DNA of 64,000 bases from an uncultured Polaromonas sp. (GCA_966112355.1 CBHWCZ010000007.1:22752-86751); one strand, 5' to 3'; counted from the stretch's first letter, positions 4,492 through 36,979 are shown. Translations and numbers: made by a program. Notes: generated by a model not told the origin, from the sequence alone.

Positions 4492-4497
4492 CAAAGC
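4492..4497. other. 6-bp footprint/coupling sequence caaagc at the element's left junction
   Basis: Six bases that belong neither to the reconstituted host gene nor to the terminal inverted repeat. Confidence 0.85.
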
Positions 4498-4509
4498 TTA
4501 TGTTGAATT
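4498..4509 (+). repeat. Left terminal inverted repeat ttatgttgaatt
   Basis: 11/12 match to the reverse complement of 36968-36979 (ttatgtggaatt). Confidence 0.85.
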
Positions 4510-4685
4510 TTTTTGTTCACATTTATGCCACTACTCCTGTTTTTATTTTTCACGCAGAGCTTTAGTCAATTTCTGCTGTTCATGAACACAATTCCAGACT
4601 GCGATACAGCGGTCAGAGACTCGTGATCGCGTGCATGTTCCGTCCTACAGCATGGACAGGCAGTGAGATTTTGCTATTGCTATGA

Positions 4686-5087
4686 CTAATGACGAGCCGC
4701 GAGCGCTAACTGCTCAAGAAGGCTCTCTTCGTCGTCTCCGCCAATTCCCGTGATGCGAGTCACGATCTCACGTTCGACCGCCCATTGATAGACCCGCAAT
4801 AAGTCCCATAGTGCACTCTCGCTAACTGTCATCTCGTCTTTTTTTGTTCTTGGCTTGGCTGAACCAAGAACTAAACACATGACCAGCATCATGGGCGCAG
4901 CGATCGACGGCGCCGGTTCTACGTCATCCCCCTCTTCAAGCGAGCGAAGGTCGCGCGCAACAGATAAAAGCATGGGCTCTGTCAATGAGGCTGGAAGGGC
5001 ACCTTGCCTCCATTTCTTCTGGCGTAAAAAGTTAGATAGCTGCGCTAGGTCAGTTGGCTGCGTAGGGCGAAGAGTGCTCAGGCTCAC
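4686..5087 (-). CDS. Hypothetical protein (~133 aa)
   Basis: Open frame; GGAG RBS 7 nt before GTG at 5087; divergent from the XRE gene. Confidence 0.6.
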   Translation of the reverse strand: MSLSTLRPTQPTDLAQLSNFLRQKKWRQGALPASLTEPMLLSVARDLRSLEEGDDVEPAPSIAAPMMLVMCLVLGSAKPRTKKDEMTVSESALWDLLRVYQWAVEREIVTRITGIGGDDEESLLEQLALAARH

Positions 5088-5170
5088 TATGTTCTCCGGT
5101 AGATGTAGGAACTGCACTTTGCACCATAAAAGCGGGTGCATAAAGTAGTCTACAACAGGAAAGTCTGGGC

Positions 5171-5440
5171 ATGAAAAAGCCCCGGAACGAAAGCCTGCTC
5201 AGAGCGTTGGCAGCGGAAATCAAGAGCCTGCGAACCGGGCTCGGTGTTAGCCAGGAGGAAATAGCGCATCGGGCTGGGCTGAACCGCACGTTTGTAGGAA
5301 AACTAGAGGTCGCACAGACCCAGCCGTCCTTGACTGTGTTATTTCAGTTGGCTGATGCTCTTGAAGTGGCCCCTGTGGAGCTTGTTGCTAATATTGCCAA
5401 GCGTACAAAGAAGGAATCGCGGTCAGGGCATCACAGATAG
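5171..5440 (+). CDS. XRE-family HTH regulator
   Basis: IKSLRTGLGVSQEEIAHRAGLNRTFVGKLE...PSLTVLFQLADAL. Confidence 0.9.
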   Translation: MKKPRNESLLRALAAEIKSLRTGLGVSQEEIAHRAGLNRTFVGKLEVAQTQPSLTVLFQLADALEVAPVELVANIAKRTKKESRSGHHR

Positions 5441-5447
5441 AAGAGTG

Positions 5448-5469
5448 GGCCTCCGCGTTGAGGCCTTTT
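5448..5469 (+). terminator. Probable intrinsic terminator
   Basis: ggcctc-cgcgtt-gaggcc followed by tttt, just after the XRE stop. Confidence 0.55.
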
Positions 5470-5598
5470 CGCACATTGCTGCTGCGCAACTAGGACGGCA
5501 AGTTAGGCACTAGAAATCGTGACTCGCCCAATCCGTCATGTTGAACCCAAAAGGCAGCTCCCGAGACAAAGCGGTATTCCAGGAGTTCGAACTGGACG

Positions 5599-5615
5599 CC
5601 CAAAAGCAGACACTG
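5599..5615 (-). repeat. Partial copy (reverse orientation) of the cargo hairpin motif
   Basis: Minus strand reads cagtgtctgcttttggg, like gtctgcttttggcc at 23080; coincides with the intI breakpoint. Confidence 0.6.
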
Positions 5616-5708
5616 GCTATAGTGCAAATAGCGAATTCGCTCGCGCACCTGTTCCAACAAGCGGACAGACTTGAGTTCAGGGGCGCGGGGTTTTATGGAG
5701 CTGTACAT
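5616..5708 (-). pseudogene. intI: Integron integrase N-terminal remnant (31 codons)
   Basis: [20 protein letters not shown] matches the IntI start ([20 protein letters not shown] in IntI1); divergent from an attC array. Confidence 0.85.
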
Positions 5709-5831
5709 AACTGAATATTTGAACTGCATAGTTAGTGGAAGCCCAAGCTGCAAGCCAATCTCAGGGAGTTGTCATGTCTAGAATATCGAACACGAGCCAG
5801 TTTATCGAGCAGGTTTTGCTCTATACATTAC

Positions 5832-5838
5832 GCTAGGT
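5832..5838 (+). other. Candidate attI recombination core (variant GCTAGGT)
   Basis: Between intI remnant and first cassette ORF; one change from GTTAGGY, the complement expected from the first attC inverse core GCCTAAC. Confidence 0.45.
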
Positions 5839-5863
5839 GGTTGCCCTCCGGAAAGGACTTGCC

Positions 5864-6049
5864 ATGTCAGCAAAGCGAAAAGTGAAGGACGCACTGAGTG
5901 CGGTAGAAGACGCATTGCGCGCGTTGCAACGGGCTGCAGCGGTGGCCCCGGGTGAGCCAAACATTACTCGTGCAATTCAAGAGCTTCGTGATGCCGAGGC
6001 ACTTTTGGAGCGGGCTGCTCGAGAGGTCGGTCGCCTCGAGGCCCAGTAG
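5864..6049 (+). CDS. Integron cassette 1: small helical hypothetical protein (61 aa)
   Basis: AAGGA RBS, ATG 5864, stop 10 nt before attC. Confidence 0.7.
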   Translation: MSAKRKVKDALSAVEDALRALQRAAAVAPGEPNITRAIQELRDAEALLERAAREVGRLEAQ

Positions 6050-6059
6050 CCGATGAGTG

Positions 6060-6117
6060 GCCTAACCCATCATTCCAGCAGACTGCATTTGGCAGCCGCT
6101 GAATTCAAACGTTAGAC
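6060..6117 (+). other. attC site 1
   Basis: GCCTAAC ... CAAAC GTTAGAC, 58 bp, internal dyad gcagactgc/gcagccgc. Confidence 0.9.
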
Positions 6118-6122
6118 CCCCG

Positions 6123-7043
6123 ATGTCACTCATCCACGACATACAAGCTGCCGCAATCGCACAGGACTCCGACATCCCGACGCTGCTGCGGATGTGCAAG
6201 CTACTCGCGGCCCGAATCTCACACCAAGATTTCGCGGACTGGGTAGATCGCGAGTTGAACGGCTACCCGAGCATCAACGACTTGCCCGACTATCGCGTAG
6301 TTCGAGTGGACTGCTATGGTTCTTTCATAGGAACATTCGCCCGCGCCGACAAGTTGCAGATTCCGGTATCCGTACTTCCAAAGGAGCTTCAAGAGCAGTT
6401 CCGAAACGCCTATATGGGTAGCAGCGTCAGCGCGTACACGGCGCTCCTTTCAGGTGACAAGTCAGGTAGCGTTCAGGAACCCTGGCCAGTCGCACTTGCC
6501 GTGCACAACGCTTCAAAGCTGACTCCGGACATGCAGTGCGTCTCCGCGTGGAAGGAGATCCCAATAGGTGCGATCGTTCGCCTGATGGACTCAGTAAAGA
6601 CCCGCGTCCTCGGCTTTGCAATCGATCTGGAACGCGAAGCGCCGAACGCCGGTGAGCTGCCGATTGGAAGTCAACCACCTCTAAGCCGCGAAAAAATGAC
6701 ACAAATCTTCAATACCAATATCACGGGCAACGTCGGCAACGTCGCCAACGCCAGTTCTGGGTTCAGCCAGTCGTCCATCCTCGTGGAGCCAGGCAACTGG
6801 CAGTCGCTCCAATCCCGCCTGCTAGAACTTGGGCTCACGGCCGGAGACATCGAGGACCTCAAGGCCGATCTTGAGCGCGCAGCCGCCTTGGGAAGCCAAG
6901 AGGACAAAACGAAGACAGCGAGCACGTGGATCGGCCGCCTCGCCGGCAAGGCTGCTACCGGAGCAGCAGGCGTAGGCATTGAAGTAGCAGCAACGGGCGT
7001 TGCTAAGGCAATTGCCGCCTACCTTGGCCTCGCTGGGGCCTAA
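6123..7043 (+). CDS. Integron cassette 2: AbiTii-domain protein
   Basis: N-terminus LLRMCKLLAARI...WVDRELNGYP...LPDYR resembles AbiTii; stop codon lies inside the attC inverse core. Confidence 0.75.
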   Translation: MSLIHDIQAAAIAQDSDIPTLLRMCKLLAARISHQDFADWVDRELNGYPSINDLPDYRVVRVDCYGSFIGTFARADKLQIPVSVLPKELQEQFRNAYMGSSVSAYTALLSGDKSGSVQEPWPVALAVHNASKLTPDMQCVSAWKEIPIGAIVRLMDSVKTRVLGFAIDLEREAPNAGELPIGSQPPLSREKMTQIFNTNITGNVGNVANASSGFSQSSILVEPGNWQSLQSRLLELGLTAGDIEDLKADLERAAALGSQEDKTKTASTWIGRLAGKAATGAAGVGIEVAATGVAKAIAAYLGLAGA

Positions 7044-8147: not shown

Positions 8148-8489
8148 TCACTTCGTTTGCTCGTTGCCGTAGGTCTTGGCCAGGTAATCCACGATCAGCG
8201 GAATGTCCGCATCGTCCACCGGCGCCTTGAATACAGTTTTCATGCGTTTGACCATGGCCTCCCAATATGGGCGTGCCGCTGTCGGTGGCTGGTACTGCAT
8301 GTATTCGGCCGAATGACAAGCCGCACAGATGGCCTGTGCCTTGGCGTAACCCGGCAGGCTGCTGGGCTTGAGCTGCACACCATCAGGTGGCAGGTCGATG
8401 GACTTGGACCCGGCATGGGCCAGGGCGGAGCCGGCCAGAAGCGCGGCCGTGATCAGGATTTTGTGTGCCAGTAGGTGGGACATGCGCAT
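8148..8489 (-). CDS. sorB: Sulfite dehydrogenase cytochrome c subunit
   Basis: Signal peptide, CAACH heme motif, YWEAMVKRM...FKAP; directly downstream of sorA with RBS. Confidence 0.85.
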   Translation of the reverse strand: MRMSHLLAHKILITAALLAGSALAHAGSKSIDLPPDGVQLKPSSLPGYAKAQAICAACHSAEYMQYQPPTAARPYWEAMVKRMKTVFKAPVDDADIPLIVDYLAKTYGNEQTK

Positions 8490-8494
8490 GCTCC

Positions 8495-9724
8495 TTAAAC
8501 AGCGGTGACTTTGACGGACTCGACCACATTGCGCATGTAGCCGGCGGGCTGCCACAGGGCCTCCATCGGCTGGCTTTGGCCCGAGCGGTTCCAGGCGCGT
8601 ACGCGCAAATCGTGGCTGCCTTTTTCTGGGGTGAAGGCGAAGGTGAACTCGCGAAAGGAGTAGCGACCCATGTCAGCACCCAGCCTGGCGCTGCGCCAAC
8701 TCTGACCACCGTCAGTGGAGTAAGCCACTTCTCGAACACCTTGCCCGCCATCAAAGGCGATGCCACGCACCACGGCCTGCTCGCCCGCCCGCACCCGACC
8801 ACCGTTTTGGACCGAAGTGATGAAGGAGCGCACATTGAATCGCCCAATAGGCCGCGTCGCTGCGGGTGCTGTCCCCGGCTCGACACAGGCACAGTCGTTG
8901 TCTGGAATGCGGTAGGCCGGCTTCATCCAGAAGCCCTCGAAGCTCTGGTCCACCACCTCGATTTCCGACAGGTGCTTGACCCAGTAGGTGCCGTAGTAGC
9001 CGGGCACGATCAACTTGACCGGATAGCCGTTGAGCAGCGGAATGTCTGCACCATTCATCTGGTAGGCGATCATCACTTCGCCATCCATCGCGTGGTTCAC
9101 ATCGATCGACTTGACGAAGTCGCCACCGCCAAACAGGGCCTGATCGAGGCCGTTGAAGGTCACCTCGCGCGCACTGTTCTTGAGCTCGGCGCGGGCCAGC
9201 ACATCCTTGAGCGCGACCCCCACCCAGCGCGCATTGCCCATAGCACCGTTGGAAAGCTGACCACCAGTGACGCGCGGCGAGAAATGGCCGCGGCTGTTGC
9301 CGGAGCACTGATTGACTGCCAGGTACTCGACGGGTTTGAACTGCGTCTTGAGATCGGCCAGAGTCAACTCGTAGGGCTTGCCCGCCGCGTTGCCACCAAT
9401 CTTGATTACATGCTTGTCCGCGTCAATCGTGGTGGGAATGCCGGCATTGTGATAGCGCACGAAGAAGGCGTCATTGGGCGTGATCAGGCCATCGTTGAAC
9501 ACCTCGAACGGCGTTTCCAGTTGTGGCGGCCGCGAGGTCAGCACAATCAGCGGGCGCTTTTCCGGGTAGGCAACCAGATTGCGCTTGCCGTTGACGAAAG
9601 GCAGCTCGACAACGGTGCCTTGCGCGAAAGCACTTCGACCGAAGGCTGCTGCGGCAAGGGCACCAGCGCCTCCGGCGAGAAGCCTGCGGCGCAGCAGGTG
9701 CTTGTTCTTGTGGCCGTCTGTCAT
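8495..9724 (-). CDS. sorA: Molybdopterin sulfite dehydrogenase, Tat-exported
   Basis: RRRLL Tat signal; RPPQLETP, NDAFFVRYH, QCSGNSR, NGYPVKLIVPGYYG. Confidence 0.9.
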   Translation of the reverse strand: MTDGHKNKHLLRRRLLAGGAGALAAAAFGRSAFAQGTVVELPFVNGKRNLVAYPEKRPLIVLTSRPPQLETPFEVFNDGLITPNDAFFVRYHNAGIPTTIDADKHVIKIGGNAAGKPYELTLADLKTQFKPVEYLAVNQCSGNSRGHFSPRVTGGQLSNGAMGNARWVGVALKDVLARAELKNSAREVTFNGLDQALFGGGDFVKSIDVNHAMDGEVMIAYQMNGADIPLLNGYPVKLIVPGYYGTYWVKHLSEIEVVDQSFEGFWMKPAYRIPDNDCACVEPGTAPAATRPIGRFNVRSFITSVQNGGRVRAGEQAVVRGIAFDGGQGVREVAYSTDGGQSWRSARLGADMGRYSFREFTFAFTPEKGSHDLRVRAWNRSGQSQPMEALWQPAGYMRNVVESVKVTAV

Positions 9725-9769
9725 GATTGTCTCCTTGTGGTTGGTGAAGTGAAAGTGGTTGGCAAAACG

Positions 9770-10372
9770 CTAACGGGGCGACTGGGCAGTCGCTACTGGT
9801 GAAAACGTGGCTTGAGCGACCGATAGCGCATGCTTTTTTTGCGCCACCAAGACCAGCGGCTTGCCGTCACGTGACGTCACCACCTGCCAGTACACATTGC
9901 CCCACCAGCCGTGGTCTTCGCTGAGCTTCACCGGCTGGTCAAAGGCGAACACGGTCACCATGCCGCCTTTTTCAAAAAAAGTGGTCAGGTGATAGACCAA
10001 ATGGCCTTCAATATCGCAAGGCCGCATCAGTTGCGGAAAGCCGGGAAGAGTCTGGGATTGGCCCAGCCCCAGATGCTCCAGGATTTTCCGGCCCTCCATG
10101 AAGTTGCCGCGCAGGGTTCGCTCGTAGTACTCGTGCTCAATCGCGCCGCGCACCAGCTCCGGAGGCCGCATCGCGAACACGGCACCCACGCCGGTGCCCA
10201 GCAGCAGCAAACCTGCTATCCCGCGCTGCACAGCAGGCCGTAATAGCCATCGGCTTTGGCGGAACAGACTGGCGGGCGGTTGACCCGGCGCGTAGGCCAG
10301 CGCCAATTCGGCGCGGGCGCGGAGATCAAATTCGTTGTCTTCGAAGGGCTTCAACTCGTTTGTTTCTTTCAT
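9770..10372 (-). CDS. Putative anti-sigma factor (single transmembrane helix)
   Basis: Follows an ECF sigma gene by 2 nt; hydrophobic segment IAGLLLLGTGVGAVFA. Confidence 0.55.
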   Translation of the reverse strand: MKETNELKPFEDNEFDLRARAELALAYAPGQPPASLFRQSRWLLRPAVQRGIAGLLLLGTGVGAVFAMRPPELVRGAIEHEYYERTLRGNFMEGRKILEHLGLGQSQTLPGFPQLMRPCDIEGHLVYHLTTFFEKGGMVTVFAFDQPVKLSEDHGWWGNVYWQVVTSRDGKPLVLVAQKKHALSVAQATFSPVATAQSPR

Positions 10373-10374
10373 GG

Positions 10375-10947
10375 TCAGGAGTCCTGGTTTCTGCGCAGCA
10401 CCGTGACCTTGCTGTCCTCGGCATAGTCCCCAGGCGCCTGCAGGTCTGTGGATCTCACCGGTATCATGGCCGCTTTCAGCGCATCGCGCGCCCGCGCCAA
10501 GCGCGACAGAACCGTGCCGGGTGCTACTTCCAGCGCCTCCGCCATCAGGGCGGTGGGCATGTCGTCAAAGTAATAGAGCACCAGCACTTCGCGGTGTATG
10601 GGCGCGATTTTTTGCAAGGCGCGCACCACATCTAGACGGTCGTCAATGCCGGACTCCGGCGCGGCGCGTGAGGCTGTATCCATAGCCAGCGCGTCGTTGT
10701 CATCCAGACAGAGCAGGCCGGGTGCCATGTGGCGCAGCGCGCTGCGGCGCATGATCTGGAACAGCCAGGCGCGGGCGAGTTCAGGTTCCCGTAGCTGGTT
10801 GCGGTATTTCCACGCGCTGGTGAAACAGTCCTGCACCACATCCTCGGCCACGGCGCGTGAGCCACTCATGGCCCAGGCGCTGCGCATCAGGAAGCGGTAG
10901 TGGTCACGCACCCATTGGTTGTAGCGGGACTCGGCAGTTTCGAACAT
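10375..10947 (-). CDS. ECF RNA polymerase sigma factor
   Basis: AEDVVQDCF, RAWLFQI, GTVLSRLARAR. Confidence 0.92.
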   Translation of the reverse strand: MFETAESRYNQWVRDHYRFLMRSAWAMSGSRAVAEDVVQDCFTSAWKYRNQLREPELARAWLFQIMRRSALRHMAPGLLCLDDNDALAMDTASRAAPESGIDDRLDVVRALQKIAPIHREVLVLYYFDDMPTALMAEALEVAPGTVLSRLARARDALKAAMIPVRSTDLQAPGDYAEDSKVTVLRRNQDS

Positions 10948-11032
10948 GCGTATAAGAGCAGTAGTTCAGGGCGCTCATTCCATTCCCCTGATAAATAGTC
11001 ACAGGGGTTTACCCGCAGACCCAGAGGCGTGG

Positions 11033-11407
11033 TCAGCCACCGCCCCGGACCGCCCCCAGTGCCGGATAACCACCTGGCTCTGGGTTGGGCCCGTGTCGTA
11101 AGACCGCCATGCGCCCGCGCATCGCAGCGATTTCCACGGTCTGGCTGGCAATGATGTCCTCGGCAATCTGACGCACCAGCGGGTCGCGTCCGTGTATCAG
11201 CACCAGCCGCGCCATGTCCACCGCCCCCTCGTGGTGGGGAATCATCATCGCCAGAAAGTCTGCATCCGGGTTGCCGGTGTAGCCCGGCCCGTGCATGTCC
11301 TGCATCATGCGGGCCATGCCGGTGTCCATGTCGACTTCAAAGCGACTGGCCGGAGGCGGGTGACCTCCCGCCAACCCTTGTGCGTGGTGGTTACTGTGGT
11401 CGGTCAT
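11033..11407 (-). CDS. DUF305 / CopM-like metal-binding protein
   Basis: DADFLAMMIPHHEGAVDMA ... IIASQTVEI; ATGA overlap with the upstream gene. Confidence 0.85.
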   Translation of the reverse strand: MTDHSNHHAQGLAGGHPPPASRFEVDMDTGMARMMQDMHGPGYTGNPDADFLAMMIPHHEGAVDMARLVLIHGRDPLVRQIAEDIIASQTVEIAAMRGRMAVLRHGPNPEPGGYPALGAVRGGG

Positions 11408-12819
11408 GCAGTCTGCCCATTGCTGCCGGGCCGGACATAGACCAGGTTGATGCTCTTCTTGTTGCGCAATTCGCCTGACGGCAGTTTGAGTGCGCCCAGC
11501 GGAATCTGGGTGATGAGTTTGGGCTCCAGCGGTGATGACACATCGAATGCGGAGCACACCACCTGCCCTGCGTTGGGGGTTCCGGGCAGTTCGTCCTGTT
11601 CATGCGCCACGTAGAGCAGGTTGTTGGCCGGGTTGGTCCAGATTCCATGGGCCTCGCGGCCACCGGTGTAGACCATGCCCACGACCTTTTGCTGAGCCAC
11701 GGGGACCGAGCGGTCGATGATGGCCAGGCGGCTGGAGGCAGCGCCGTTCGGGCCACCGTCGTCGACGCGCGCCAGACTCATGTAGGTCACCTGGCCACGG
11801 GCATTGTCCACAAACTCCAGGTGGTTGGGGCGTGCCAGTTCACCCAGGGCAATCGTGCTCAACACAGCACCCGGGTCTTTGACCGACACGATCGAGACCG
11901 CATCAGCCAGCTTGTGCGACAGCCACATCTGGTTGCCGTCCGGCGAGAGTTTTTGGAACGGCGTGAAGGCAGGTTTGTCCTGACTGCTCAGGTCCACAAG
12001 GCGCAAGCGTTTCGGGCGTGAATGGCCTTTCGCGTCGGCGTTGACCTGCAGGATCTCGAGCTGTGCGGTTTTCTGGCTGATGACAAAGGCCAGCGCGCCG
12101 TCTTTGGAAAACCAGACCTGGGCCGGGCCGTTGAGCGTGGGGATGTACGCGCGAACAGCTAGCGCGGGGATGCCGGTCGGACTGGTCAGCTGCTGGGTGG
12201 CCTGCGCCACGTCGATGATGGCGATGCGGTCCTCACCGCGGAGGGTGACCCATAACTCCTTGCCGTTACGGGTAAAGGTCGGCTCATGCGGCTCACGTCC
12301 CAGCAAGATGCCACTGGACAACCGCTCCGGGTTGGTGGTGGCGCCAGCCTGTGGATTGGCCACATTGCCCACCACGCGCCGGTTCACCGCGTCAATCAGG
12401 TAAATGTTGCTGCTGCCGCGGCCCGAGGTGGCCAGCAGTGTGCCGTCCGGGTTGGGCACTGCGCCGTGGGCGTCAATGCAGCCGTGGTACAGGGGCTTGT
12501 GAATCATGGCGGCATGGGTGGGCATAACGCCGCCGGTGACAAACCGAAACGGCGGCCGTGCTTCTTCGTCAAAGCTGGTGAGGTTGATGGTGGTGTCCAC
12601 CGTATTGCTGGCAGGATTGATCACGCTGATGGTGTTTGAATCCTCGTTGGTGATGAAGACACGGTCCACCGGTGCGATGTCGGGTCCAGCGGATATTCCC
12701 ATCACTGGTGCAGGTTGCGCTGCAGCTGGTGCCACCGCCCAAGGCGCGGCCGCGACGGCGGGTAGCGCCGCAGCGGCTTTCAGGAAGTCGCGACGCGAGT
12801 CATTGAGAAATTCAGTCAT
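11404..12819 (-). CDS. Tat-exported YncE/YVTN-like beta-propeller protein
   Basis: SRRDFLK Tat motif; VFITNEDSNTISVI; repeated xHE/xHG blades. Confidence 0.8.
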   Translation of the reverse strand: MTEFLNDSRRDFLKAAAALPAVAAAPWAVAPAAAQPAPVMGISAGPDIAPVDRVFITNEDSNTISVINPASNTVDTTINLTSFDEEARPPFRFVTGGVMPTHAAMIHKPLYHGCIDAHGAVPNPDGTLLATSGRGSSNIYLIDAVNRRVVGNVANPQAGATTNPERLSSGILLGREPHEPTFTRNGKELWVTLRGEDRIAIIDVAQATQQLTSPTGIPALAVRAYIPTLNGPAQVWFSKDGALAFVISQKTAQLEILQVNADAKGHSRPKRLRLVDLSSQDKPAFTPFQKLSPDGNQMWLSHKLADAVSIVSVKDPGAVLSTIALGELARPNHLEFVDNARGQVTYMSLARVDDGGPNGAASSRLAIIDRSVPVAQQKVVGMVYTGGREAHGIWTNPANNLLYVAHEQDELPGTPNAGQVVCSAFDVSSPLEPKLITQIPLGALKLPSGELRNKKSINLVYVRPGSNGQTA

Positions 12820-13815: not shown

Positions 13816-13825
13816 GACGGTCTGT

Positions 13826-28679: not shown

Positions 28680-30317
28680 ATGGTTTCCTCTCACGTCCCT
28701 GCTATTGTCCTGACCACCCTCAACGCAAAGTACATCCACGCCTCGCTTGGCCTGCGCTATCTCTTGGCCAACATGGGGGCGCTGAAGCGGCAAACCGTGC
28801 TGCGGGAGTTCACCATCGCGCGAAGGGCATCTGAGGTGGCGGCTGAGTTGCTGGCGACGCTGGGTGAGCCGCTGTCGGGGACTGTGCAGGTCATCGGGTT
28901 TGGCGTCTATATTTGGAACGTGACCCAAACAACCGAAGTGGTGCGCTTGCTCAAGAACCAGCGACCAGGGGTCAAAGTGGTGCTAGGTGGGCCCGAGGTC
29001 AGCCATGAACTGGGCGAGCAGGAGATTGTCAGCCTGGTCGACCATGTGATTACAGGCTGGGGTGATGTGAGTTTTCCGAAACTGTGCCGCGCGCTCTTGC
29101 AAGGGCCGCAACCGCTGATGAAAATCATCAAGGGTGAAGAGCCGCCGCTCGACGACATCGTACTGCCCTACGCCGAGTACACCGATACCGATCTGGCGCA
29201 CCGCCTGCTCTACGTCGAAGCGTCGCGCGGGTGTCCTTTTAAGTGCTCGTTTTGCCTAAGCTCACTCGACAAGACCGCTTGGGCGTTTGATTTGGACGCT
29301 TTTCTGGCCGAGATGGCGGGGTTGTACCAGCGCGGTGCGCGGAATTTCAAGTTTGTCGACCGTACGTTCAACCTTAAGATTGATGCCTCGGTGCGCATTC
29401 TGCAGTTTTTTCTGGATCGGATGACAGACGATTTGTTCGTGCATTTTGAAGTCGTGCCTGACCACTTACCAGATCGACTCAAAACTATGATTGCGCAGTT
29501 CCCCCCAGGAGTGCTTCAGTTTGAAGTGGGCGTGCAAAGCTTTAATACTACGGTTCAGCAACGCATCTCGCGCAAGCAGGACAACGACAAAACCGCGCTG
29601 AATTTGCGCTGGCTGGTGCAAGAGTCCAACGCGCATTTGCACACCGACTTGCTGTTTGGCCTGCCGGGCGAGTCGTTGGAGAGTTTTGCAGCGGGCTTTG
29701 ACCGCCTGCACGCCTTGCGGCCGCACGAAATTCAATTGGGGATTTTGAAGCGTCTGCGCGGCACGCCGATTGCCCGCCTCACCGCGGCATACGGCATGGT
29801 TTATGACCCCGAGCCGCCCTACACCGTACTGCAGACCGGTGCCGTGGACGCGGATACGATGAAGCGTTTTACGCGCTTCTCGCGCTACTGGGATCTGGTC
29901 GCCAATTCAGGGCGTTTCACGCAGACGCTGAACTTATTGCTGGGAGTCGGCGCCGAGACTTGCGCCGATGAACCTGCCGATGGGGACGTCACCCCAGCCA
30001 GCGTGGTGCCAGCATCGCCGTTTTACGCGTTCATGGGTTTTGCCGACTGGCTCTGGCAAAGCACCACCAAAACCAGTGGGCTGACGCCCGAAGCGCTGGT
30101 GGATGCTCTGTGTGACTACCTGATCGGTCCGTGTGCTTTGCCTTTGGACCAAGTTCAACGCGCCTTGCTGGCCGACTATGTGGCGAGTGGCGCCCGGTCC
30201 AACCCGCATGCTCTCAAAGGCCTGTTGCCCAAACGCGAAGCTCCCCAATTGCGTGGCGTCAAAACGCTGGCGAATCGCCAGGTGCTACATCAGGCTGTTC
30301 GTCAGACTGCGGACTGA
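28680..30317 (+). CDS. Intact B12-binding radical SAM protein (545 aa), element-borne homolog of the interrupted host gene
   Basis: TLNAKYIHASLGLR, GGPEVS, EASRGCPFKCSFC, FKFVDRTFN, DLLFGLPGE; colinear with both host halves. Confidence 0.95.
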   Translation: MVSSHVPAIVLTTLNAKYIHASLGLRYLLANMGALKRQTVLREFTIARRASEVAAELLATLGEPLSGTVQVIGFGVYIWNVTQTTEVVRLLKNQRPGVKVVLGGPEVSHELGEQEIVSLVDHVITGWGDVSFPKLCRALLQGPQPLMKIIKGEEPPLDDIVLPYAEYTDTDLAHRLLYVEASRGCPFKCSFCLSSLDKTAWAFDLDAFLAEMAGLYQRGARNFKFVDRTFNLKIDASVRILQFFLDRMTDDLFVHFEVVPDHLPDRLKTMIAQFPPGVLQFEVGVQSFNTTVQQRISRKQDNDKTALNLRWLVQESNAHLHTDLLFGLPGESLESFAAGFDRLHALRPHEIQLGILKRLRGTPIARLTAAYGMVYDPEPPYTVLQTGAVDADTMKRFTRFSRYWDLVANSGRFTQTLNLLLGVGAETCADEPADGDVTPASVVPASPFYAFMGFADWLWQSTTKTSGLTPEALVDALCDYLIGPCALPLDQVQRALLADYVASGARSNPHALKGLLPKREAPQLRGVKTLANRQVLHQAVRQTAD

Positions 30318-30375: not shown

Positions 30376-31287
30376 TTACTCCTTGTCCTTCCGGGCAGAA
30401 TGAATGCTCGTCACCTTCGCTCTATCGACCTTCCCGGCCTTGGTGGGGATTTTCTTCAGTAGTTCCTCGGTAGGCACCCAGATGGCTTTCGTGCGCTTCA
30501 TGACATCGGCAGGAATCTGGTGGGTCGACTTACCTTTATGGGTCGCGTCGATGATTTGGTAATCGAATCCAAGATCGACGTAGGGCTGTACGTCCTGGAC
30601 AGTCGCAAAGACGTTGGCGACCACCACGTACTCGCCATCGGCCAGCGCCTTCCGTGTCTGCTCTAGGCACCATGCGTGAGCCTGCGGCAGCTTTGTTTCG
30701 TCAAAGGCATAACCGTCTTCTGCCTGGAAGAACTGATCCGATTCGAAATGCTGGTACCCGTCTTCACGGTAGCCGTTGGCCTTGGTGCTCTTTCCGCTGC
30801 CAGGCAGTCCTCGAATCAGGACTAGGCGAGGTAATGCCGCTTCCTTTTGCGGTAGATGAACCACTTTTTCAAACTCGACTACCAGTTTGCGCAACTGAGA
30901 GGCTTCCGCCGCATCTCGCCGCGCATTCACTTCGGCCTTTCGGCGGGCGAGCACATGATCCGCCATCTTGGTTTCCAGAAGGCGCTTTTCTGCTTTGACG
31001 GTAGCCAGGTCCGCGCGCAGGTTTTCGATGAGCTGGGTGTAAGTGGTGGGCAGCGCCTTCTTACCCCCTTGCGCGAGTTTGACGGCCTCGCGCACCATGG
31101 GGTAGCGACAATCCTCCAATGCGATCAGCGTCCTGCTGCGGCCGGCTTCACGTGCAACGCTGACGGTATTGACCTTTAGCTTGCCAGCCTTGGCACTGGC
31201 TTTGAGTATTTTGTTCTGCGGCTTGCCCTCTACCAACCGGTGAAGGGCTTCGAGGAAGTCCTGCTCAATGGGGTCAGGCTGGGGCAT
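30376..31287 (-). CDS. Recombination auxiliary (TnpC/Srap-like) domain fused to a P-loop kinase (AAA_33-like)
   Basis: N-terminal VAREAGRSRTLI HTH plus coiled coil; C-terminal LVLIRGLPGSGKST...ESDQFF...AHAWC; overlaps the intB-like gene. Confidence 0.75.
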   Translation of the reverse strand: MPQPDPIEQDFLEALHRLVEGKPQNKILKASAKAGKLKVNTVSVAREAGRSRTLIALEDCRYPMVREAVKLAQGGKKALPTTYTQLIENLRADLATVKAEKRLLETKMADHVLARRKAEVNARRDAAEASQLRKLVVEFEKVVHLPQKEAALPRLVLIRGLPGSGKSTKANGYREDGYQHFESDQFFQAEDGYAFDETKLPQAHAWCLEQTRKALADGEYVVVANVFATVQDVQPYVDLGFDYQIIDATHKGKSTHQIPADVMKRTKAIWVPTEELLKKIPTKAGKVDRAKVTSIHSARKDKE

Positions 31288-33475
31288 GCTCAGCCTCCAA
31301 CGTCTGTTCGATCTGTCGGTCCAGTTGCACCACCTTAACGCCGATCTTCTTGAGCAGCTTGCCGGCCTGCTCGGCGCGCTCCTTGATCACCTTATAGCCA
31401 CTGACATCACCGCTGCGCTCCGCCCGTTTGTACGCCAGCCAGTTGTCCAAGTACCTTGCTGCCCAGAAGTCCGCGTGCCGGGCATCGAGTACAAAGCAGC
31501 CGCAGCCAGCGCACAGCGACGGTTGGCGCGTGCGGGTATTGGGTTGCTTACGCAGGAGCAACGACGTGCCAGCCTCGTCCTGGCAACGCATCTCATGGGT
31601 CCTCAGAGGCATGCAGGCACCGTGAGGTGAGAAGAAGATCGGTAGTTGCGCGTGCTCGCAAAACTTCACGACTTCCTTGTACGCATCGCTCGTCGGCAGT
31701 CCCTTGACCTGCTCAGCCAGTTTCTGCGTCGCCTGCTCCAGTTCCTCACCCATCCTGCCCGCAAGCGGGTTGCAGCCCAGCACGTTTTCGAGAATCATCA
31801 GGTTGCGGGCCTGGGTCGCCACCGACTCCATATCATTGAGTAGACTCATGTTGCTCCCGATGTAACCGCTGTCCGTCATAGCCATCGACATGTGATGAAA
31901 CTGCAACTGGATAGCAGGCATTAAGCTTGGGTCAACGGCGAACATAAACTGCGCCCAACTCTTTCGTAGCATGTGACTTTTGAAGACGTGCCCCTTGGAC
32001 TCGCGCCACTCGATAAGGTCGTTGTCCTTGATCTTGTGCCGTGACTCTTTCGGCAAACCCGACAGATCGACCCAACGTTCAATGAAACGCTTCATGCTGA
32101 GGAGCATCTTGTCGGAAGTCAACTCCCCTAGCCCGGTGGTTTTGACTGGCAAGACTATTCCGCCGTGCATCCCCAGAAGCAAGCGGGTCGTCTTGGCGTG
32201 CTCATGCCAAGGCTCATACAAGCGGTTAAGTAGGCGCAGGGCGCGCACGGGAAGCGGTTCATCCATGGAACCTTTCGGCCGCATACCCAGCACCCAGTCC
32301 ATCTCTCTAGGCAAGCCGGTTTCCGTTTTGGACAAGACTGTGCGAATCACGAACAATTCATAGAGGCCGGATGCCGAGACCTCGATCCGGACCCCCCTGG
32401 GCAACCCGCTCTCCGCATCGAACCCCGCTTCGATGCCCATCAGCTCACTGATGCGCATACCCGACATCCCTTGGATGCACAAGGCGTAGGCATCGCGCAC
32501 GGCTTCGAACAGTTGGCGCACTCGCGCCAGTGAACCATTTTGGTCTTCACTCGCATAGTTCCCGTCCAATGGCGCATGCCAGGGCTGAGATTCACCGGGC
32601 AGGTTCCTGAAGGAGAAGTCAGCAAGGAAGCGGTTGTGACGCCTCGCCCTTGCCGAACTGCCAACCCCGGCCGTTATCTTGCGAATACCTGTTTTGCTTC
32701 GTCTTTCTTCTATGTCGACTTTCGTGCCTGCGAGCGGGTCATCTAGATACCCCAGCAGGGCGATCACGTCTTCTGCCGGCCCACCCATCCACCAGGTTAC
32801 CTTGTTGAAGAGCGGTATTGCGACCTCATCAGGCAAAGGCGGAATCCAGCCCACAGCTTTGGTCGCCAACGCATCCGCGTAGTAATGTAGGCTGTGCTCG
32901 CGGAACGGGTCTTGATTGAGGGTGGGTACACCCCACCTCGTCAGCAAACGTCGCTCCGACCAGAGCTTTGGAATGATTACAAGTGCATGTTTGACTTGAC
33001 TAGTTGTAATTTCGTCTACGTCTGAACGCTCTGCGATGTAGCGCGGCAGGTCTTCGAGATAACCCTCCACATCCAGCTCATTCGGAGTTTGCATACCGCG
33101 CATTGCCATCCACGACAGGAGCCACCTAAGTCCCAGCTGGTAACTCACCATTGACCCAGCTGCCGGTACGACGCCGTTCGCTGGAGCGAGCGTGATAAGC
33201 GCAACAAGTTTTTTGGCCCACGTCAGCCGAAGTGCATGACGGGTGTCGGTGAGCCTGCTGCCGTCGCTGAGTTCCATGCCCCAGTTCACTTTGGCCTTTG
33301 TACTGCGTTGTCCAGGGGTGGTAGGCACCCACATCCAAACCGTATCCTCTCCCTTACTCAGCGGCGTGACCTGGAACGTGGCGAACTCTGCTGGGGTCAT
33401 TTCGCAGAGAGGTCGATGGCCGTTCGGCTTTTCCTGCTTTGGGACCTCATTATCGAGGGCGGAGGTCGGTTTCAT
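31274..33475 (-). CDS. Large tyrosine recombinase (IntB-like)
   Basis: GMRISEL (R), SHMLRK (HxxR), FHH, MTDSGY; Cys-rich C-terminus. Confidence 0.85.
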   Translation of the reverse strand: MKPTSALDNEVPKQEKPNGHRPLCEMTPAEFATFQVTPLSKGEDTVWMWVPTTPGQRSTKAKVNWGMELSDGSRLTDTRHALRLTWAKKLVALITLAPANGVVPAAGSMVSYQLGLRWLLSWMAMRGMQTPNELDVEGYLEDLPRYIAERSDVDEITTSQVKHALVIIPKLWSERRLLTRWGVPTLNQDPFREHSLHYYADALATKAVGWIPPLPDEVAIPLFNKVTWWMGGPAEDVIALLGYLDDPLAGTKVDIEERRSKTGIRKITAGVGSSARARRHNRFLADFSFRNLPGESQPWHAPLDGNYASEDQNGSLARVRQLFEAVRDAYALCIQGMSGMRISELMGIEAGFDAESGLPRGVRIEVSASGLYELFVIRTVLSKTETGLPREMDWVLGMRPKGSMDEPLPVRALRLLNRLYEPWHEHAKTTRLLLGMHGGIVLPVKTTGLGELTSDKMLLSMKRFIERWVDLSGLPKESRHKIKDNDLIEWRESKGHVFKSHMLRKSWAQFMFAVDPSLMPAIQLQFHHMSMAMTDSGYIGSNMSLLNDMESVATQARNLMILENVLGCNPLAGRMGEELEQATQKLAEQVKGLPTSDAYKEVVKFCEHAQLPIFFSPHGACMPLRTHEMRCQDEAGTSLLLRKQPNTRTRQPSLCAGCGCFVLDARHADFWAARYLDNWLAYKRAERSGDVSGYKVIKERAEQAGKLLKKIGVKVVQLDRQIEQTLEAEHAPA

Positions 33476-33487
33476 AGTTGCTCCTCA

Positions 33488-35536
33488 TTAGCCGATATCG
33501 GGCAGTTCAACGGTGAGTTTGCGTGACTCTTGAAGGACCTGAGGCGGAACGTTCGCCAGTAGACCGTCCAAGGCGGCGACTACGGGTGCCCAGCGATCCT
33601 TCCACACGGGGGCAGTCACTCGTATCATGCTACGGTAGATGGCACGCCGTAGCGCCTCATAGAGCATGACGTTGCTAGGATTGACTGGGCGTGCAGCAGA
33701 CAACGGGCAGTCGGGGCATTCGCCATAGGCGCTGCAAAGACGACCCTGCTTTTGATTGGGGCGCGGCGAATCAAACGGGTCTAGGCAAATCCAGCCAGGC
33801 GTTGCGCACCCTTTGCTCTCCCACTCACTGTGTTTGCGCGGATCAATCTTGCCTTCTGAGTCCAGCCAACGCTCCCTCACCAGCATAGTCTCGCCGGTGG
33901 CTTCCTTCAGCATTCGTTTCACTAGGTCGCTGGTGTAATGCGTCCAAGTGGTGACGCGGCTGGCATGGTTTCCTACCTGGCGCGCAGCCTCAAGATCGCC
34001 GCGATTGAAGAGTTGCACGTAGTCCAACATCGTCGCTCGGATCGTTTTGAGTGTAAAACTAGGAAGATTGTTGTCTTTGATGAATTTGGCAATAGCGTCC
34101 GACCAAGTCTTATCCCCCACTGCATCGTAGGTGTCGCCTCCAAAACCCTTTGCCCGCTTCATCCGATTTTTCTGGACATACAAAAAAATACGGTCGCCGT
34201 ACCTCTCTGGCTCAATCACAAATGGACGGATTCGCGAAGTTATGGCGATGAGTAGATCGAGGACCATATTGAGGCTCACCTGATTGACGCCGCCACCTTC
34301 AGGGTCCAACAGCCGTACGAGTTGTCGCCTAGCGCGCGGCTTATCGCCGGTAATTTTTGTCAAGCGAGATTCGGTTGCGTCGGACGCTTCCGCTTCCATT
34401 GATGTGTCAACCTCGTCAGCCTCTTGCGTTACGTCAAACTGCACCGCTCGCCGCCCGTTGCTCAACGGGTCAACATTGCGATCTATGTCTTTCCAATTCA
34501 GGGTAAGGATCGTGTTTGAGTTGAATACGGTTGATATGGCGATGCTCAGAACCAGCGGCACTAGTTCGCGCGCGCTCGGATAGAAGTAGCGAGTCATCTT
34601 CCCAGTACTGATACCATATTTAATCGTGTATCCGAGTAAAGCATTGTCTGCATTGATTACAGTTTGGTCGGGAATCACGCCTGGGTAGCGCTGATCAATA
34701 AGCGCAATGGCTACTGCGAGATTAGATTCCTCAACCACCGTTACGTTTCGTGTTCGAGGACTTTTTACAAGCACAGCGCCGTTGCGGCGCAATTCTCGCC
34801 CGCGCATCAGAATACTTTGGCCTTTTTCCCAATCCTCGCGCAGGGCTAGAACCTCTTTCTCGACGGCAGATATGACCGCGAGCAATTGGTCGAACTGCAG
34901 CACCTCTGTGGGTTCCACCTTGCGTTGTGCTCCACGAGGTCCACTCGGCACCAAATCAATCAAGCTCGGCATTTTAGATGCGCCAAGTGCTCCGCGTAGC
35001 GCATTGAGTTTCGAGCCGATGGTCATAGGCAGATATGCGCTTCCATCTGCTTTTCGCCTCTGACTTAACCAAGTATTGAATCCAGTAAAAATCTGTTCGT
35101 CCAAATCCGCCGGACGCAGGTTGGTGTACCCGCGCTCACCGAGAAACGCAAACCAAGAACCGCGCAGGTTTTGAGCGAAACCAATTCGGGACATGGTCCT
35201 GTAGTTCTTAATCGCCTTGAGTAACGCCTCAGCAAAGAAATCCGTCAGCCCCGGAAACGCCAGCAAGAAGCTTAGATCGAGTCGGTCGGGCTCTCCTCCG
35301 CCCTTCTTAGGGAAGATGGCAGTGAGCGTCGGCTTGCCGCCAGCTGTGCCATGTTCGATTCGTGTGGAGGGGAGGTTTTGGACGTTGGCTTGCTCAGCAT
35401 TTCGTCGACGAGCCGCTTCAAACACTTGCCGCGCGCGCTTGTTGCGGATTTTTTTGTTGGGCGGTGACTCCGGTAAGACACGTCCAGCGTTACCCGCATT
35501 CAGATCCATTGAGTCATCCATCAATCCCTCACCCAA
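33488..35536 (-). CDS. Degenerate tyrosine-recombinase-fold protein (SE CDS2-like)
   Basis: LKTIRAT, GNH, TTWTHY retained, but first catalytic Arg (FNSNTI) and HxxR His are replaced. Confidence 0.7.
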   Translation of the reverse strand: MGEGLMDDSMDLNAGNAGRVLPESPPNKKIRNKRARQVFEAARRRNAEQANVQNLPSTRIEHGTAGGKPTLTAIFPKKGGGEPDRLDLSFLLAFPGLTDFFAEALLKAIKNYRTMSRIGFAQNLRGSWFAFLGERGYTNLRPADLDEQIFTGFNTWLSQRRKADGSAYLPMTIGSKLNALRGALGASKMPSLIDLVPSGPRGAQRKVEPTEVLQFDQLLAVISAVEKEVLALREDWEKGQSILMRGRELRRNGAVLVKSPRTRNVTVVEESNLAVAIALIDQRYPGVIPDQTVINADNALLGYTIKYGISTGKMTRYFYPSARELVPLVLSIAISTVFNSNTILTLNWKDIDRNVDPLSNGRRAVQFDVTQEADEVDTSMEAEASDATESRLTKITGDKPRARRQLVRLLDPEGGGVNQVSLNMVLDLLIAITSRIRPFVIEPERYGDRIFLYVQKNRMKRAKGFGGDTYDAVGDKTWSDAIAKFIKDNNLPSFTLKTIRATMLDYVQLFNRGDLEAARQVGNHASRVTTWTHYTSDLVKRMLKEATGETMLVRERWLDSEGKIDPRKHSEWESKGCATPGWICLDPFDSPRPNQKQGRLCSAYGECPDCPLSAARPVNPSNVMLYEALRRAIYRSMIRVTAPVWKDRWAPVVAALDGLLANVPPQVLQESRKLTVELPDIG

Positions 35537-36796
35537 TCAATTTTGCAAACCGAGCAGCCTGCGGATGTCCATCACACCTTGCTTCTCACCGAAGATGGAG
35601 ACATGCGCCAGATAAGTGTCCGTGGTGACTTTCAGGCTCTTATGTCCCAGTTTGATCTGCACGATCTTCCAAGGCTCAGTTTTCCCCTGAGACTTTTCAG
35701 CGTGATAAGTCAGCACGGCGCAGTTGTGCCTAAGGTCATGGAATGAGTGAGCAGGGACTGTCTTGACATGCTTCTTACCGGTCTCAACGTCTTCCATATC
35801 AATCCGCTCAGTGATACCGCATTTCATGCATGCCAGGGCGAACATCTTCTGGATGGCGGAGCCCGTAATCCGCTTGCCTGCACTCTTGCTGGCGGCATGA
35901 CCAAGAAATAGGGCAGTGGTAGCCTTGACTCCCCGTTTCTTTCCCTCGCGCTCGCTTGATGCGCGCTCTCCGTTGATGTACGTCTGAATGGCAAGGACAA
36001 GCCAGCCTGGTGCGGCCACCTTGCGCGTGACCTTCATCTTGCCTTCTACGATCAAGGGGAAGTCCATGAGTTGTTCATGTGGCTCCACGATGATGTTCAA
36101 AAATTGAAGCGTCGTAAGCGTTGTCACATCGCCAAGTCTGGTACCTGCGACATAGCCCAGGTCACAGATAAGGCGATTACGTACTTGCCGCTTATCTTGT
36201 GTGGTTTGAACCGTGGGACCGACGTGCTCCAGTAGCTTACGCAATTGCTTTACCTGCAGCGGCCTGATTACATCCTTTCGCCCCACCTTTTTGAGCAGTG
36301 GGTCCTTTTCCTTTACACGCCCCCCCGTGGGGCGCGTGTGTGCAAGAGCGTCGTCATCGATGCGCCGATTGTCAACCAGTCGTTCCTCAATTGAAGCACC
36401 TATATCCCGGTGATACCAACCCTCGGCGCGCGCAAAGTCATAGAACCTGCGCACCGCAGTCAATTTACGGTTGATTGTTTTGTCATCGCTTGCCGCCTCG
36501 GAATAGTCGTCTGCGAATTGGTGCCTGTCTGACTCTGTCGCGGCGTGCCAGTCGATCTCTTTTAACTGACACCATTGAAACCAACTCAACAGGTCATATC
36601 CAGCGGCCGCCCAGGTGTGTGGACTTGGAGTACCGCCGACACTCACAAACTTTTGATGAAGAAAGATTGTCGGCTCTGAAAAGAGATCGACCTGATCTTT
36701 GAAATATTGGAATATCAAGGGTTGTTGTGGCACAACCAACTCTGCTCGATCACGGGCCTTAACCAGTCGTAAGTCTGCAGTTAAAAAATTGTTCAC
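35537..36796 (-). CDS. Tyrosine recombinase (IntA-like)
   Basis: AGTRLGDV, HDLRH, LGH, TTDTY: full catalytic set; 183 bp from the element end. Confidence 0.93.
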   Translation of the reverse strand: MNNFLTADLRLVKARDRAELVVPQQPLIFQYFKDQVDLFSEPTIFLHQKFVSVGGTPSPHTWAAAGYDLLSWFQWCQLKEIDWHAATESDRHQFADDYSEAASDDKTINRKLTAVRRFYDFARAEGWYHRDIGASIEERLVDNRRIDDDALAHTRPTGGRVKEKDPLLKKVGRKDVIRPLQVKQLRKLLEHVGPTVQTTQDKRQVRNRLICDLGYVAGTRLGDVTTLTTLQFLNIIVEPHEQLMDFPLIVEGKMKVTRKVAAPGWLVLAIQTYINGERASSEREGKKRGVKATTALFLGHAASKSAGKRITGSAIQKMFALACMKCGITERIDMEDVETGKKHVKTVPAHSFHDLRHNCAVLTYHAEKSQGKTEPWKIVQIKLGHKSLKVTTDTYLAHVSIFGEKQGVMDIRRLLGLQN

Positions 36797-36967
36797 GGCA
36801 TTGCTTTCACACCATCAGTAGGATGAACATAATTTATCACCGACCACTCTAATATCCATTTAAATAATGGATTTATTAAATTCCATGAACATTTTGACAA
36901 AACCTTACATTTCCGTAGATTCCAAAAAAATGAGGCGTCGAATGAGTCTTTTGTTCTGCTGCAGGGG

Positions 36968-36979
36968 AATTCCACATAA
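36968..36979 (-). repeat. Right terminal inverted repeat
   Basis: aattccacataa, directly abutting host sequence tgaaggggcagcc. Confidence 0.85.

Follow-up and report, generated by a model that had tools for sequence, protein, structure and literature searches.

A likely SE-like integrative element in the iron-sulfur codons of a Polaromonas radical SAM gene, carrying a spare copy of that gene

Integrative elements of the SE family share a core of four genes, arranged in the order intA-tfp-intB-srap (PMC10214605, PMC9345347), and their integration obeys a rule of polarity. The six base pairs of the attB site come to lie beside the terminal motif C, in attL on the intA side, and six base pairs from the donor come to lie beside motif C', in attR; the circular form carries the donor's intA-proximal six base pairs, which integration then places at the intA-distal end (PMC9345347, PMC10214605). 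Characterised SEs leave no empty site, and the family has been reported only from Gammaproteobacteria (PMC10214605, PMC9345347). Some of them, namely SE-6283 and its relatives, have bcp as their target and bring a bcp gene along. In this article, we describe a 32,488-bp element found in 64,000 nucleotides of DNA of an uncultured Polaromonas sp. (GCA_966112355.1 CBHWCZ010000007.1:22752-86751), a stretch that we will call the window and whose positions are counted from its first letter. We hold, with good confidence, that it is a site-specific, non-conjugative, SE-like integrative element of the Polaromonas chromosome, which targets the iron-sulfur codons of a radical SAM gene and brings a spare copy of that gene with it.

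Two other described systems come close to this design. GInts are built around the genes ginABCD, and the broad definition of Bardaji et al. has them reach Alpha- and Betaproteobacteria; their direct repeats measure 10-17 nt, their 3' end is AT-rich, their protein lacking the catalytic arginine is the third one, and read-through from the host promoter into their first integrase has been shown (PMC5385486). In the Tn554 family, the related Tn552-II carries a gene resembling its target that may rescue the disrupted copy (PMC12486829).

The Polaromonas element interrupts a resident gene for a B12-binding, DUF4080-type radical SAM protein, and the features of the insertion site are the following.

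4492..36979, minus strand: the whole inserted element, 32,488 bp including an extra hexamer, with borders taken from empty-site contigs and uninterrupted relatives
36980..37520, minus strand: 5' portion of the resident gene for the B12-binding/DUF4080 radical SAM protein (its first 180 codons and 1 nt), co-directional with intA
3401..4491, minus strand: 3' part of the resident radical SAM gene, with precomputed Pfam matches to Radical_SAM and DUF4080 (P0100)
36980..36985: host hexamer tgaagg (CCTTCA in gene orientation), adjoining the intA-proximal end and present in empty sites
36968..36979: intA-proximal terminal repeat (motif C), TTATGTGGAATT reading inward
4498..4509: intA-distal terminal repeat (motif C'), TTATGTTGAATT reading inward, 11/12 against C
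4492..4497: extra hexamer caaagc (GCTTTG in gene orientation), between C' and host DNA and not in empty sites

On the plus strand, the left junction reads gaactcgcact (ending at 4491), caaagc (4492-4497) and ttatgttgaatt (4498-4509), and the right one reads aattccacataa (36968-36979) followed by tgaaggggcagcc from 36980. When 3401-4491 and 36980-37520 are joined, the result is 1632 nt long, with 543 codons, a terminal stop and zero internal stops, and the rejoined open reading frame (ORF) on the minus strand reads SRGCPFKCEFCLS / YVEASRGCPFKCEFCLSALDKTAW across the joint. The cut falls inside the codons of the CxxxCxxC iron-sulfur motif (TGC CCC TTC A|AG TGC). The domains of the resident protein (B12-binding, Radical_SAM, DUF4080) are deduced from the paralog borne by the element and from database relatives. 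A preliminary description of this DNA had already claimed that a radical SAM gene is split in its iron-sulfur motif and that 541 nt and 1091 nt rejoin as an intact 543-codon ORF, which is reproduced here; the comparison with relatives that it had proposed as a check yields an uninterrupted gene in Polaromonas and three other inserts at the same codon.

Indeed, 120 rejoined nucleotides are 89-94% identical, gapless at the joint, to the uninterrupted genes of Polaromonas L001, L002, L003 and L007 (GGCTGCCCCTTCAAGTGCGAGTTCTGCCT being identical in L002 and L007), and the flanks of the window are collinear with uninterrupted Polaromonas loci across the joint. A search for the DUF4080 gene with one genome per species returned 15 loci, among which the nearest are from Polaromonas, with 77-94% protein identity, which makes the host a Polaromonas. 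On the chromosome of Polaromonas sp. P2-4 (CP087965.1; L015 6001-7575), the DUF4080 gene aligns only as four frame-shifted pieces, reflecting either a decayed gene or sequencing indel errors.

Public sequencing runs were consulted as assembled contigs only, and such assemblies lose rare variants. In run X3, a soil metagenome, one Logan contig of 1542 nt joins 36980 to 4491 with no extra base, as does one Logan contig of 636 nt in run X4, and both are ~96-99% identical to the window flanks. Because these contigs run directly from 36980 to 4491, the empty site exists in natural populations, the borders are fixed at 4491|36980, and caaagc is not host DNA; the insertion is thus polymorphic among near-identical populations. 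Logan contigs of run X1 span both junctions with 0 differences and a contig of run X2 spans the left one, so that an assembly break at the junctions, a possibility raised in the preliminary description, is disfavoured. Run X1 also contains a second contig, of 4.2 kb, which matches window 4685-5272 with 83 differences over 588 nt before it runs into dissimilar sequence; that sample thus also contains a second element or context, related to this one but distinct. Another assembly of the same element breaks near 4837.

At these independently defined borders lies a terminal inverted repeat of 12 nt with an 11/12 match, for which the chance expectation is ~2e-6. The hexamers caaagc and tgaagg have 3/6 bases in common, so there is no true target duplication; an extra hexamer on the left only and no duplication had been claimed before, and junctions and empty sites agree on it. 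The polarity is that of SEs, because CCTTCA adjoins the intA-proximal end and GCTTTG adjoins the distal one. The G+C content of the element is ~0.50-0.63 versus ~0.65-0.68 in the flanks, and its distal end is AT-rich (aattttttttgttcacatttatg).

The recombination genes form a block of four core ORFs (419, 682, 733 and 303 aa) arranged head to tail on the minus strand and starting 172 bp inside the right end. The block and the repeats near both ends are composed as follows.

35537..36796, minus strand: IntA, a 419-aa tyrosine recombinase with Pfam Phage_int_SAM_1 and Phage_integrase matches
33488..35536, minus strand: Tfp-like protein, 682 aa, tyrosine-recombinase fold, zero Pfam matches
31274..33475, minus strand: IntB-like large tyrosine recombinase, 733 aa, with a weak C-terminal Pfam Phage_integrase match
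30376..31287, minus strand: 303-aa protein with a Srap-like N-terminal part (~residues 1-130) and an AAA_33 P-loop kinase-like domain (Pfam AAA_33)
4514..4588: three TGTTCAY motifs at the distal end (starts 4514, 4577 and 4582), within ~90 bp of the end
36790..36891: three TGTTCAY motifs, no more than ~190 bp from the intA-proximal end

In IntA, matches to NCBIfam XerC/D-like models stay below cut-off, and the catalytic R, HxxR, H and Y were identified by eye. Residues R341, H501, R504, H527/528 and Y538 are invariant in the IntB-like family, and in the Tfp-like family an invariant asparagine (N339) stands in place of the box-I arginine. The structures closest to an AlphaFold model of the 682-aa protein (mean pLDDT 72) are XerH, XerA and an integron integrase, and by this prediction the protein has a recombinase fold but only part of the catalytic set. 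At the C-terminus of both large proteins lies an invariant cluster of four cysteines (C584/C601/C607/C610 in the 682-aa protein, C621/C631/C655/C658 in the 733-aa one), to which a comparable cysteine-rich stretch aligns in SE Tfp and IntB; these clusters may be zinc-binding modules. A PDB sequence search with the IntB-like profile returned nothing meaningful.

The srap-like gene overlaps intB by 14 nt. Its product is 40% identical to the 153-aa fourth gene product of the module on plasmid pSES189. It is fused to AAA_33 in the subgroup of the window, and also in Curvibacter, Chitinimonas, Thiobacillus and the SCN2 genome, and it stands alone, with ~155 aa, in a Janthinobacterium/Massilia subgroup (e.g. 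L033 14090-14563) and in sphingomonad plasmids. As for the TGTTCAY motif, 64 kb contain 28 sites, and when these are counted in 300-bp bins the two highest counts fall at the two ends of the element. AAAATGTTCAT or near variants of it lie at an equal distance from the end in most relatives (exactly so in L017, L019 and L030), which makes these repeats candidate arm-type binding sites.

To connect this module to SEs, we used the four-gene block of Pseudomonas aeruginosa pF011, whose last protein is WP_009681707. We take this block as an SE because WP_009681707 is the reference protein named in the annotation of the Srap orthologs listed in Additional file 3 of the SE paper. With blastp, the window proteins match their pF011 counterparts in order, with E values of 1e-4 for IntA, 7e-3 for Tfp, 3e-13 for IntB and 0.13 for Srap. 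With hhalign and profiles built from relatives of the window proteins, the 682-aa profile matches SE Tfp with a probability of 98% (E 2e-13, 432 columns), and the 733-aa profile matches SE IntB with a probability of 99% (E 4e-18, 508 columns).

The likeness to SEs covers the order intA, tfp, intB, srap at one end, with remote homology along almost the entire length of the two large proteins and, in the second protein of the four, a recombinase fold without the first catalytic arginine; it covers the short imperfect inverted-repeat ends without target duplication, with six foreign base pairs at the intA-distal end and six host base pairs at the intA-proximal one; and it extends to a narrow choice of target, a set of ORFs in which no transfer genes were found, and a G+C content below that of the host. 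The differences are that the hosts of the window family are Beta- and Alphaproteobacteria plus one gammaproteobacterial metagenome-assembled genome (MAG), that pairwise identity is ~21-25% with a marginal Srap match, that the fourth protein is fused to AAA_33 in the window subgroup, and that the targets are radical SAM iron-sulfur codons. The most fitting description of the element is that it belongs to a group of Beta- and Alphaproteobacteria, so far without a name, that is sister to the SEs.

Several points weigh against this assignment. The match of the fourth protein to SE Srap is weak and confined to a helix-turn-helix (HTH)-like stretch (E 6.5e-4, probability 27%), and the PSI-BLAST searches of Idola et al. 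found no Tfp or Srap homologs in Betaproteobacteria, so that the element falls outside the SE family by that operational definition. The terminal repeat of 12 bp is one base below the 13-19 bp reported for SEs. The contrast with GInts drawn below is a single one, made with the E. coli O157 Sakai element (ECs_3509-3512) from the GInt list of the SE paper. Finally, a search for the distal (attR) junctions of the relatives, with the pattern C' plus 4-8 nt plus the downstream cysteine codons in genome and metagenome contigs, gave chance hits only; since no second distal junction was recovered from a relative, caaagc could be a fixed part of the element end rather than a transferable spacer. Looking for the reverse complement of each element's own end in the fetched loci gave nothing convincing, and a search for truncated genes with the resident 3' half returned essentially only full-length genes among the best 120. 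One distal-junction candidate, in L034, was rejected, as its subterminal sequence is unrelated and the 3' half of the gene does not follow.

On the SE-like reading, the element would move through a circular form produced by an attL x attR exchange, perhaps by strand-biased copy-out as in SEs, without an empty site. Tyrosine-recombinase strand exchange would take place over a region of 6 bp, which need not match, inside the CxxxCxxC codons of the resident DUF4080 gene. The host tgaagg, presumably the central 6 bp of attB, stayed beside the intA-proximal end, and the six bases of the element joint (GCTTTG in gene orientation) would be laid beside the distal end, with nothing duplicated. The hexamer caaagc would then be the spacer of a presumed donor site. 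GCTTTG does not fit the target codons (CNTTYA), and if the SE rule holds this misfit suggests that the element came from a site of another kind. Transcription entering from the host promoter may add to intA expression, as in GInts. The insertion breaks the resident gene and at the same time supplies an intact paralog of it.

The best surviving alternative is that the element is a GInt, the two hexamers being imperfect direct repeats of attL and attR. It has several traits on its side: three recombinase-like genes and a small fourth one form an operon at the 5' end, followed by a large variable cargo; the insertion is site-specific, within a gene and near its 5' half, with host transcription directed into the first integrase; the imperfect flanking 6-mers (3/6) recall the GInt repeats, which are explained by 6-nt staggered cuts that generate attachment-site variants; and the published definition of GInts already covers the classes concerned. 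The proteins, however, speak for SEs. Against the Sakai GInt, blastp gives a match between IntA and GinA only, and hhalign probabilities are <1% for the 682- and 733-aa profiles against GinC and for the fourth-protein profile against GinD, as opposed to 98-99% for the SE counterparts of the two large proteins; similarity to GinB, GinC and GinD is undetectable in this single GInt compared. Moreover, the protein without the first catalytic arginine is encoded by the second gene, as in SEs, and not by the third. GInts are described with direct repeats rather than terminal inverted repeats; here the two hexamers are the sole sequences readable as direct repeats, and the distal end is AT-rich, as the 3' end of GInts is. 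We consider a GInt improbable.

The Tn554 family of Firmicutes (Tn554, Tn553/Tn552-II) also shows an absence of duplication, 6-7 bp from the donor site at the far end and a high target specificity, to which Tn552-II adds its target-like gene. Its set of tnpA, tnpB and tnpC, encoding two recombinases and a small protein, is without a Tfp counterpart and its hosts are Gram-positive, which sets it apart by description, and no staphylococcal records appear among the plasmid matches of the two large proteins of the window.

Tn916 has one integrase, Xis and a full conjugation module, and it prefers AT-rich bent targets. If the element were a Tn916-like conjugative transposon, or integrative and conjugative element, the hexamer would be a coupling sequence stemming from staggered cuts by Int, and a heteroduplex joint and an empty site with either hexamer would be expected after excision. 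The one-sided 6-bp mismatch without duplication does resemble the non-identical 6-bp coupling sequences at Tn916 junctions, and a tyrosine recombinase sits at the element end. However, searches of the larger ORFs with Pfam, NCBIfam and PADLOC found no Xis, coupling protein or conjugation genes, and no families of relaxases, type IV secretion systems, phage structural proteins or DDE transposases either; the recombinase belongs to a three-protein set homologous to SE IntA/Tfp/IntB; and a helicase with partial matches to the TraA helicase turns out to be a full-length PDC-S53 protein. This reading is accordingly very unlikely. The preliminary description had named Tn916-like and SE-type elements together: the four-gene IntA/Tfp-like/IntB-like/Srap-like module and the polarity of the hexamers sustain the second half of that proposal, and the first half finds no support, since Xis, relaxase and conjugation genes were not detected among the ORFs searched. 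Its exclusion of DDE transposons and tRNA-targeting phages holds as well. Indeed, a prophage, a DDE transposon and a tRNA-targeting island were discarded here: no family of transposases or phage structural proteins was found at the ends, and neither the element nor its borders contain a tRNA. The sole tRNA call of the window is distant (ARAGORN, 61737-61829, a 93-nt tRNA-Gln(ttg)) and lies inside two long, mutually overlapping ORFs, 60539-63802 (plus strand) and 61604-63694 (minus strand); its length and setting suggest a false positive.

The SE-like element has a radical SAM gene of its own, which the preliminary description had missed.

28680..30317, plus strand: intact B12-binding/DUF4080 radical SAM gene, 545 aa, with its own CPFKCSFC motif

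The spare protein is 64% identical to the split resident one, and the spare gene is 91-93% identical to the copies found in the Rhodoferax and Comamonas elements described below. In the N-terminal ~190 aa, identity is 88-92% among the spare copies, 69-86% among the resident fragments of the four hosts, and 72-77% between spare and resident. As the spare copies are closer to each other than the residents are, the spare gene travels with the element. Most likely it replaces the lost function, and would thereby tie that function to the retention of the element. Carriage of a target copy is already known from the SE-6283 group, which likewise inserts within a gene (bcp) and has its own copy of it, so the design is not new. 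We dropped the idea that the spare gene's own site had been mutated for immunity to insertion: it differs at several synonymous positions, and its left half is nearly the site used in the Comamonas host. The spare protein also has a partial match (E 5e-27) to the PADLOC candidate family PDC-M51A, which may be a general radical SAM similarity.

The spare gene bears on another possibility, namely that we are dealing with a regulated intervening element, like skin in sigK or the cyanobacterial nifD and fdxN elements, whose precise excision would restore the resident gene. The resident halves are undecayed and rejoin perfectly, and replacement of the hexamer would keep CxxxCxxC: the codon arithmetic put forward earlier is right, since changing tgaagg to caaagc gives GCRFEC with the motif kept, and leaving caaagc as an insertion gives a Cx5C spacing. 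Yet the element's own intact copy makes restoration needless, relatives with different cargo in several genera fit horizontal spread better, and characterised SEs do not leave empty sites. We therefore give this explanation very little chance. For the SE-like element, the GCRFEC outcome would probably be of little consequence, because no empty site is expected from characterised SEs and an intact spare gene is present.

That the junctions are an artefact of assembly or binning can be dismissed, since, even though the source appears to be a mixed sample, with a second diverged distal copy in X1 and another assembly broken near 4837, independent Logan contigs cross both junctions without mismatch, the flanks are collinear with uninterrupted loci, and the same junction sequence occurs in three other assemblies from other genera.

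We will now consider the relatives of the SE-like element and their targets. Close relatives of IntA, with 76-84% identity, occur in four other genomes, and the same codon is occupied in Rhodoferax sp. U11-2br (NZ_JAHFZF010000039.1), in a betaproteobacterial MAG and in a Comamonas MAG (CAMELV010000007.1). At this shared codon, the junctions of the relatives read GGCTGCCCATTCA|TTATGTGGAATTCC or GGCTGCCCTTTTA|TTATGTGGAATTCC, and the consensus at the insertion point is GGCTGCCC(A/T)TT(C/T)A|TTATGTGGAATTCC. The spare DUF4080 gene is visible in the Rhodoferax and Comamonas elements, and the contig of the betaproteobacterial MAG ends before that point. The end sequence TTATGTGGAATTCC is identical in L016-L019 and matches at 13/14 bases in L030; L049 has it as in the window element, but is inserted in a PA0069-type gene. 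The insertion sites are thus few and fixed: the same DUF4080 codon in four genomes, with other fixed sites shared by other family members.

Further afield, a translated search of plasmids for the two large proteins brought up, for the most part, alpha- and betaproteobacterial plasmids, along with Pseudomonas aeruginosa megaplasmids. Relatives of the 682-aa protein fall in ~99 database clusters, all unnamed or hypothetical, and betaproteobacterial wherever an organism is given. An alignment scan with the 733-aa protein gave 24 loci in Burkholderiales, Thiobacillus, Azospirillum, sphingomonad plasmids and one gammaproteobacterial MAG, and the order intA-tfp-intB-srap is kept in all 24 where the contig reaches far enough, as well as in L030 and L033. 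Wherever the flanking ORF is readable, the interrupted host gene has its 5' part directed into intA. The module of the Sphingobium yanoikuyae plasmid pSES189 (L027), whose cargo includes several TIR-domain proteins, is found with 100% protein identity in L054, L055 and L056, the identical records belonging to a Pseudorhizobium MAG, Novosphingobium silvae and N. panipatense, which points to a probable recent spread.

A survey of 28 junctions, in which the target could be named for 22 and six were without a named target, included the following target genes.

DUF4080 radical SAM gene: 4 (the window and three relatives)
PA0069-type radical SAM gene (NPYRGCEH|GCxYC): 12, in elements that span 30-62% identity to the 733-aa protein of the window
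HNH-like gene: 2
ComEC-like gene: 1
ferritin-like/DUF455-type gene: 1

The radical SAM genes account for 16/22 nameable insertions, all of them at one offset in the CxxxCxxC codons of two unrelated radical SAM families: in both, the cut lies 10 nt past the start of the first cysteine codon (TGC CCN TTY A| and TGC GAR CAY G|). At least 4 of these 16 elements visibly carry an intact copy of the gene that they broke. In particular, an intact PA0069-type gene is found inside L046 and L047, whose target is the same gene, and inside L042, whose target is not named. The two HNH-like insertions, those of close relatives in Limnohabitans (L019 9818) and in Curvibacter AEP1-3 (L030 8512), lie directly after KLF(I/V)RDRN; these proteins presumably continue as xCxYCG, and the cut would then lie 2 nt before the cysteine codon. 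The Curvibacter AEP1-3 element has taken up many IS21-type insertions. Complete genomes with relatives are those of Curvibacter sp. AEP1-3 (CP015698) and Janthinobacterium lividum (CM132674).

In both radical SAM targets, a non-conserved centre is preceded by CGN GGC TGC and followed by TGC NNN TWY TGC, and this DNA is shared because the protein motif RGCxxxCx(F/Y)C imposes it. This is good evidence, though not proof, that the motif-encoding DNA itself is recognised. One may tentatively go further, at somewhat less than even odds, and propose that the clade recognises radical SAM motif DNA (CGN GGC TGC, 7 nt, cut, NN TGC NNN TWY TGC), which would have enabled jumps from PA0069-type to DUF4080-type genes at the same offset, with an intact copy of each new target picked up. 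If true, the catalytic signature of a superfamily would be a portable, host-independent landing pad for genomic islands.

The remaining genes of the window element are given below.

24812..28452, minus strand: TrlF-family ATPase (1004 aa) and DUF2026 protein (NCBIfam TrlF_fam_ATP, 636 bits, above cut-off; Pfam DUF2026)
20335..23025, plus strand: SF1 helicase-like protein of the candidate defence family PDC-S53 (PADLOC 1327 bits, full length; Pfam AAA_30 and UvrD_C_2)
5171..7043, plus strand: HTH regulator (5171-5440) and AbiTii-family protein (6123-7043)
8148..20094: cargo block, with the genes named after this list

This last block contains a sulfite-oxidase-type molybdoenzyme with a c-type cytochrome-like ORF (CxxCH by eye, zero Pfam matches), and two genes for ECF sigma factors, behind each of which an ORF without family match occupies the anti-sigma position. 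It also contains DUF305, lactonase-like, Lipoprotein_15 and SnoaL-like proteins, a Cons_hypoth698 membrane protein, a LysR regulator and an SGNH hydrolase. The cargo apart from the spare gene is mostly anti-phage defence and accessory metabolism. When the AbiTii protein was looked up by exact sequence, a single further assembly of this element came up, whose contig ends before the junction. In the Rhodoferax element, a SIR2_2 protein and a ~747-aa partner are found (L038 16349-20097), and this pair recurs, with a 90% identical SIR2_2 protein, in an unrelated island from a metagenome (L066 10001-13752), where its neighbours are a resolvase and a P4-type integrase, so that this defence pair is common to different island types. 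Using the SIR2-family protein as a route along the Rhodoferax contig was abandoned, as its 90%-identical match led only to that P4-type island. Outside the element, the ~0.65 G+C right flank of the window dips at 49001-50000 (0.50) and 59001-60000 (0.55), and these dips may be other small acquired segments.

A remotely homologous, collinear module in Beta- and Alphaproteobacteria widens the range of the recently described three-protein machinery of SEs, and such divergent SE-like sequences help to work out which parts of that machinery are essential. In practical terms, split radical SAM genes in Burkholderiales are markers of defence-rich islands, and the recombinase set may yield tools for site-specific integration with a predictable, widely conserved target. 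The most interesting aspect remains that the family as a whole lands in radical SAM iron-sulfur codons while carrying a spare, which suggests a general strategy: to land in the most conserved DNA, to repay the damage with a spare copy, and to make the host depend on the element.

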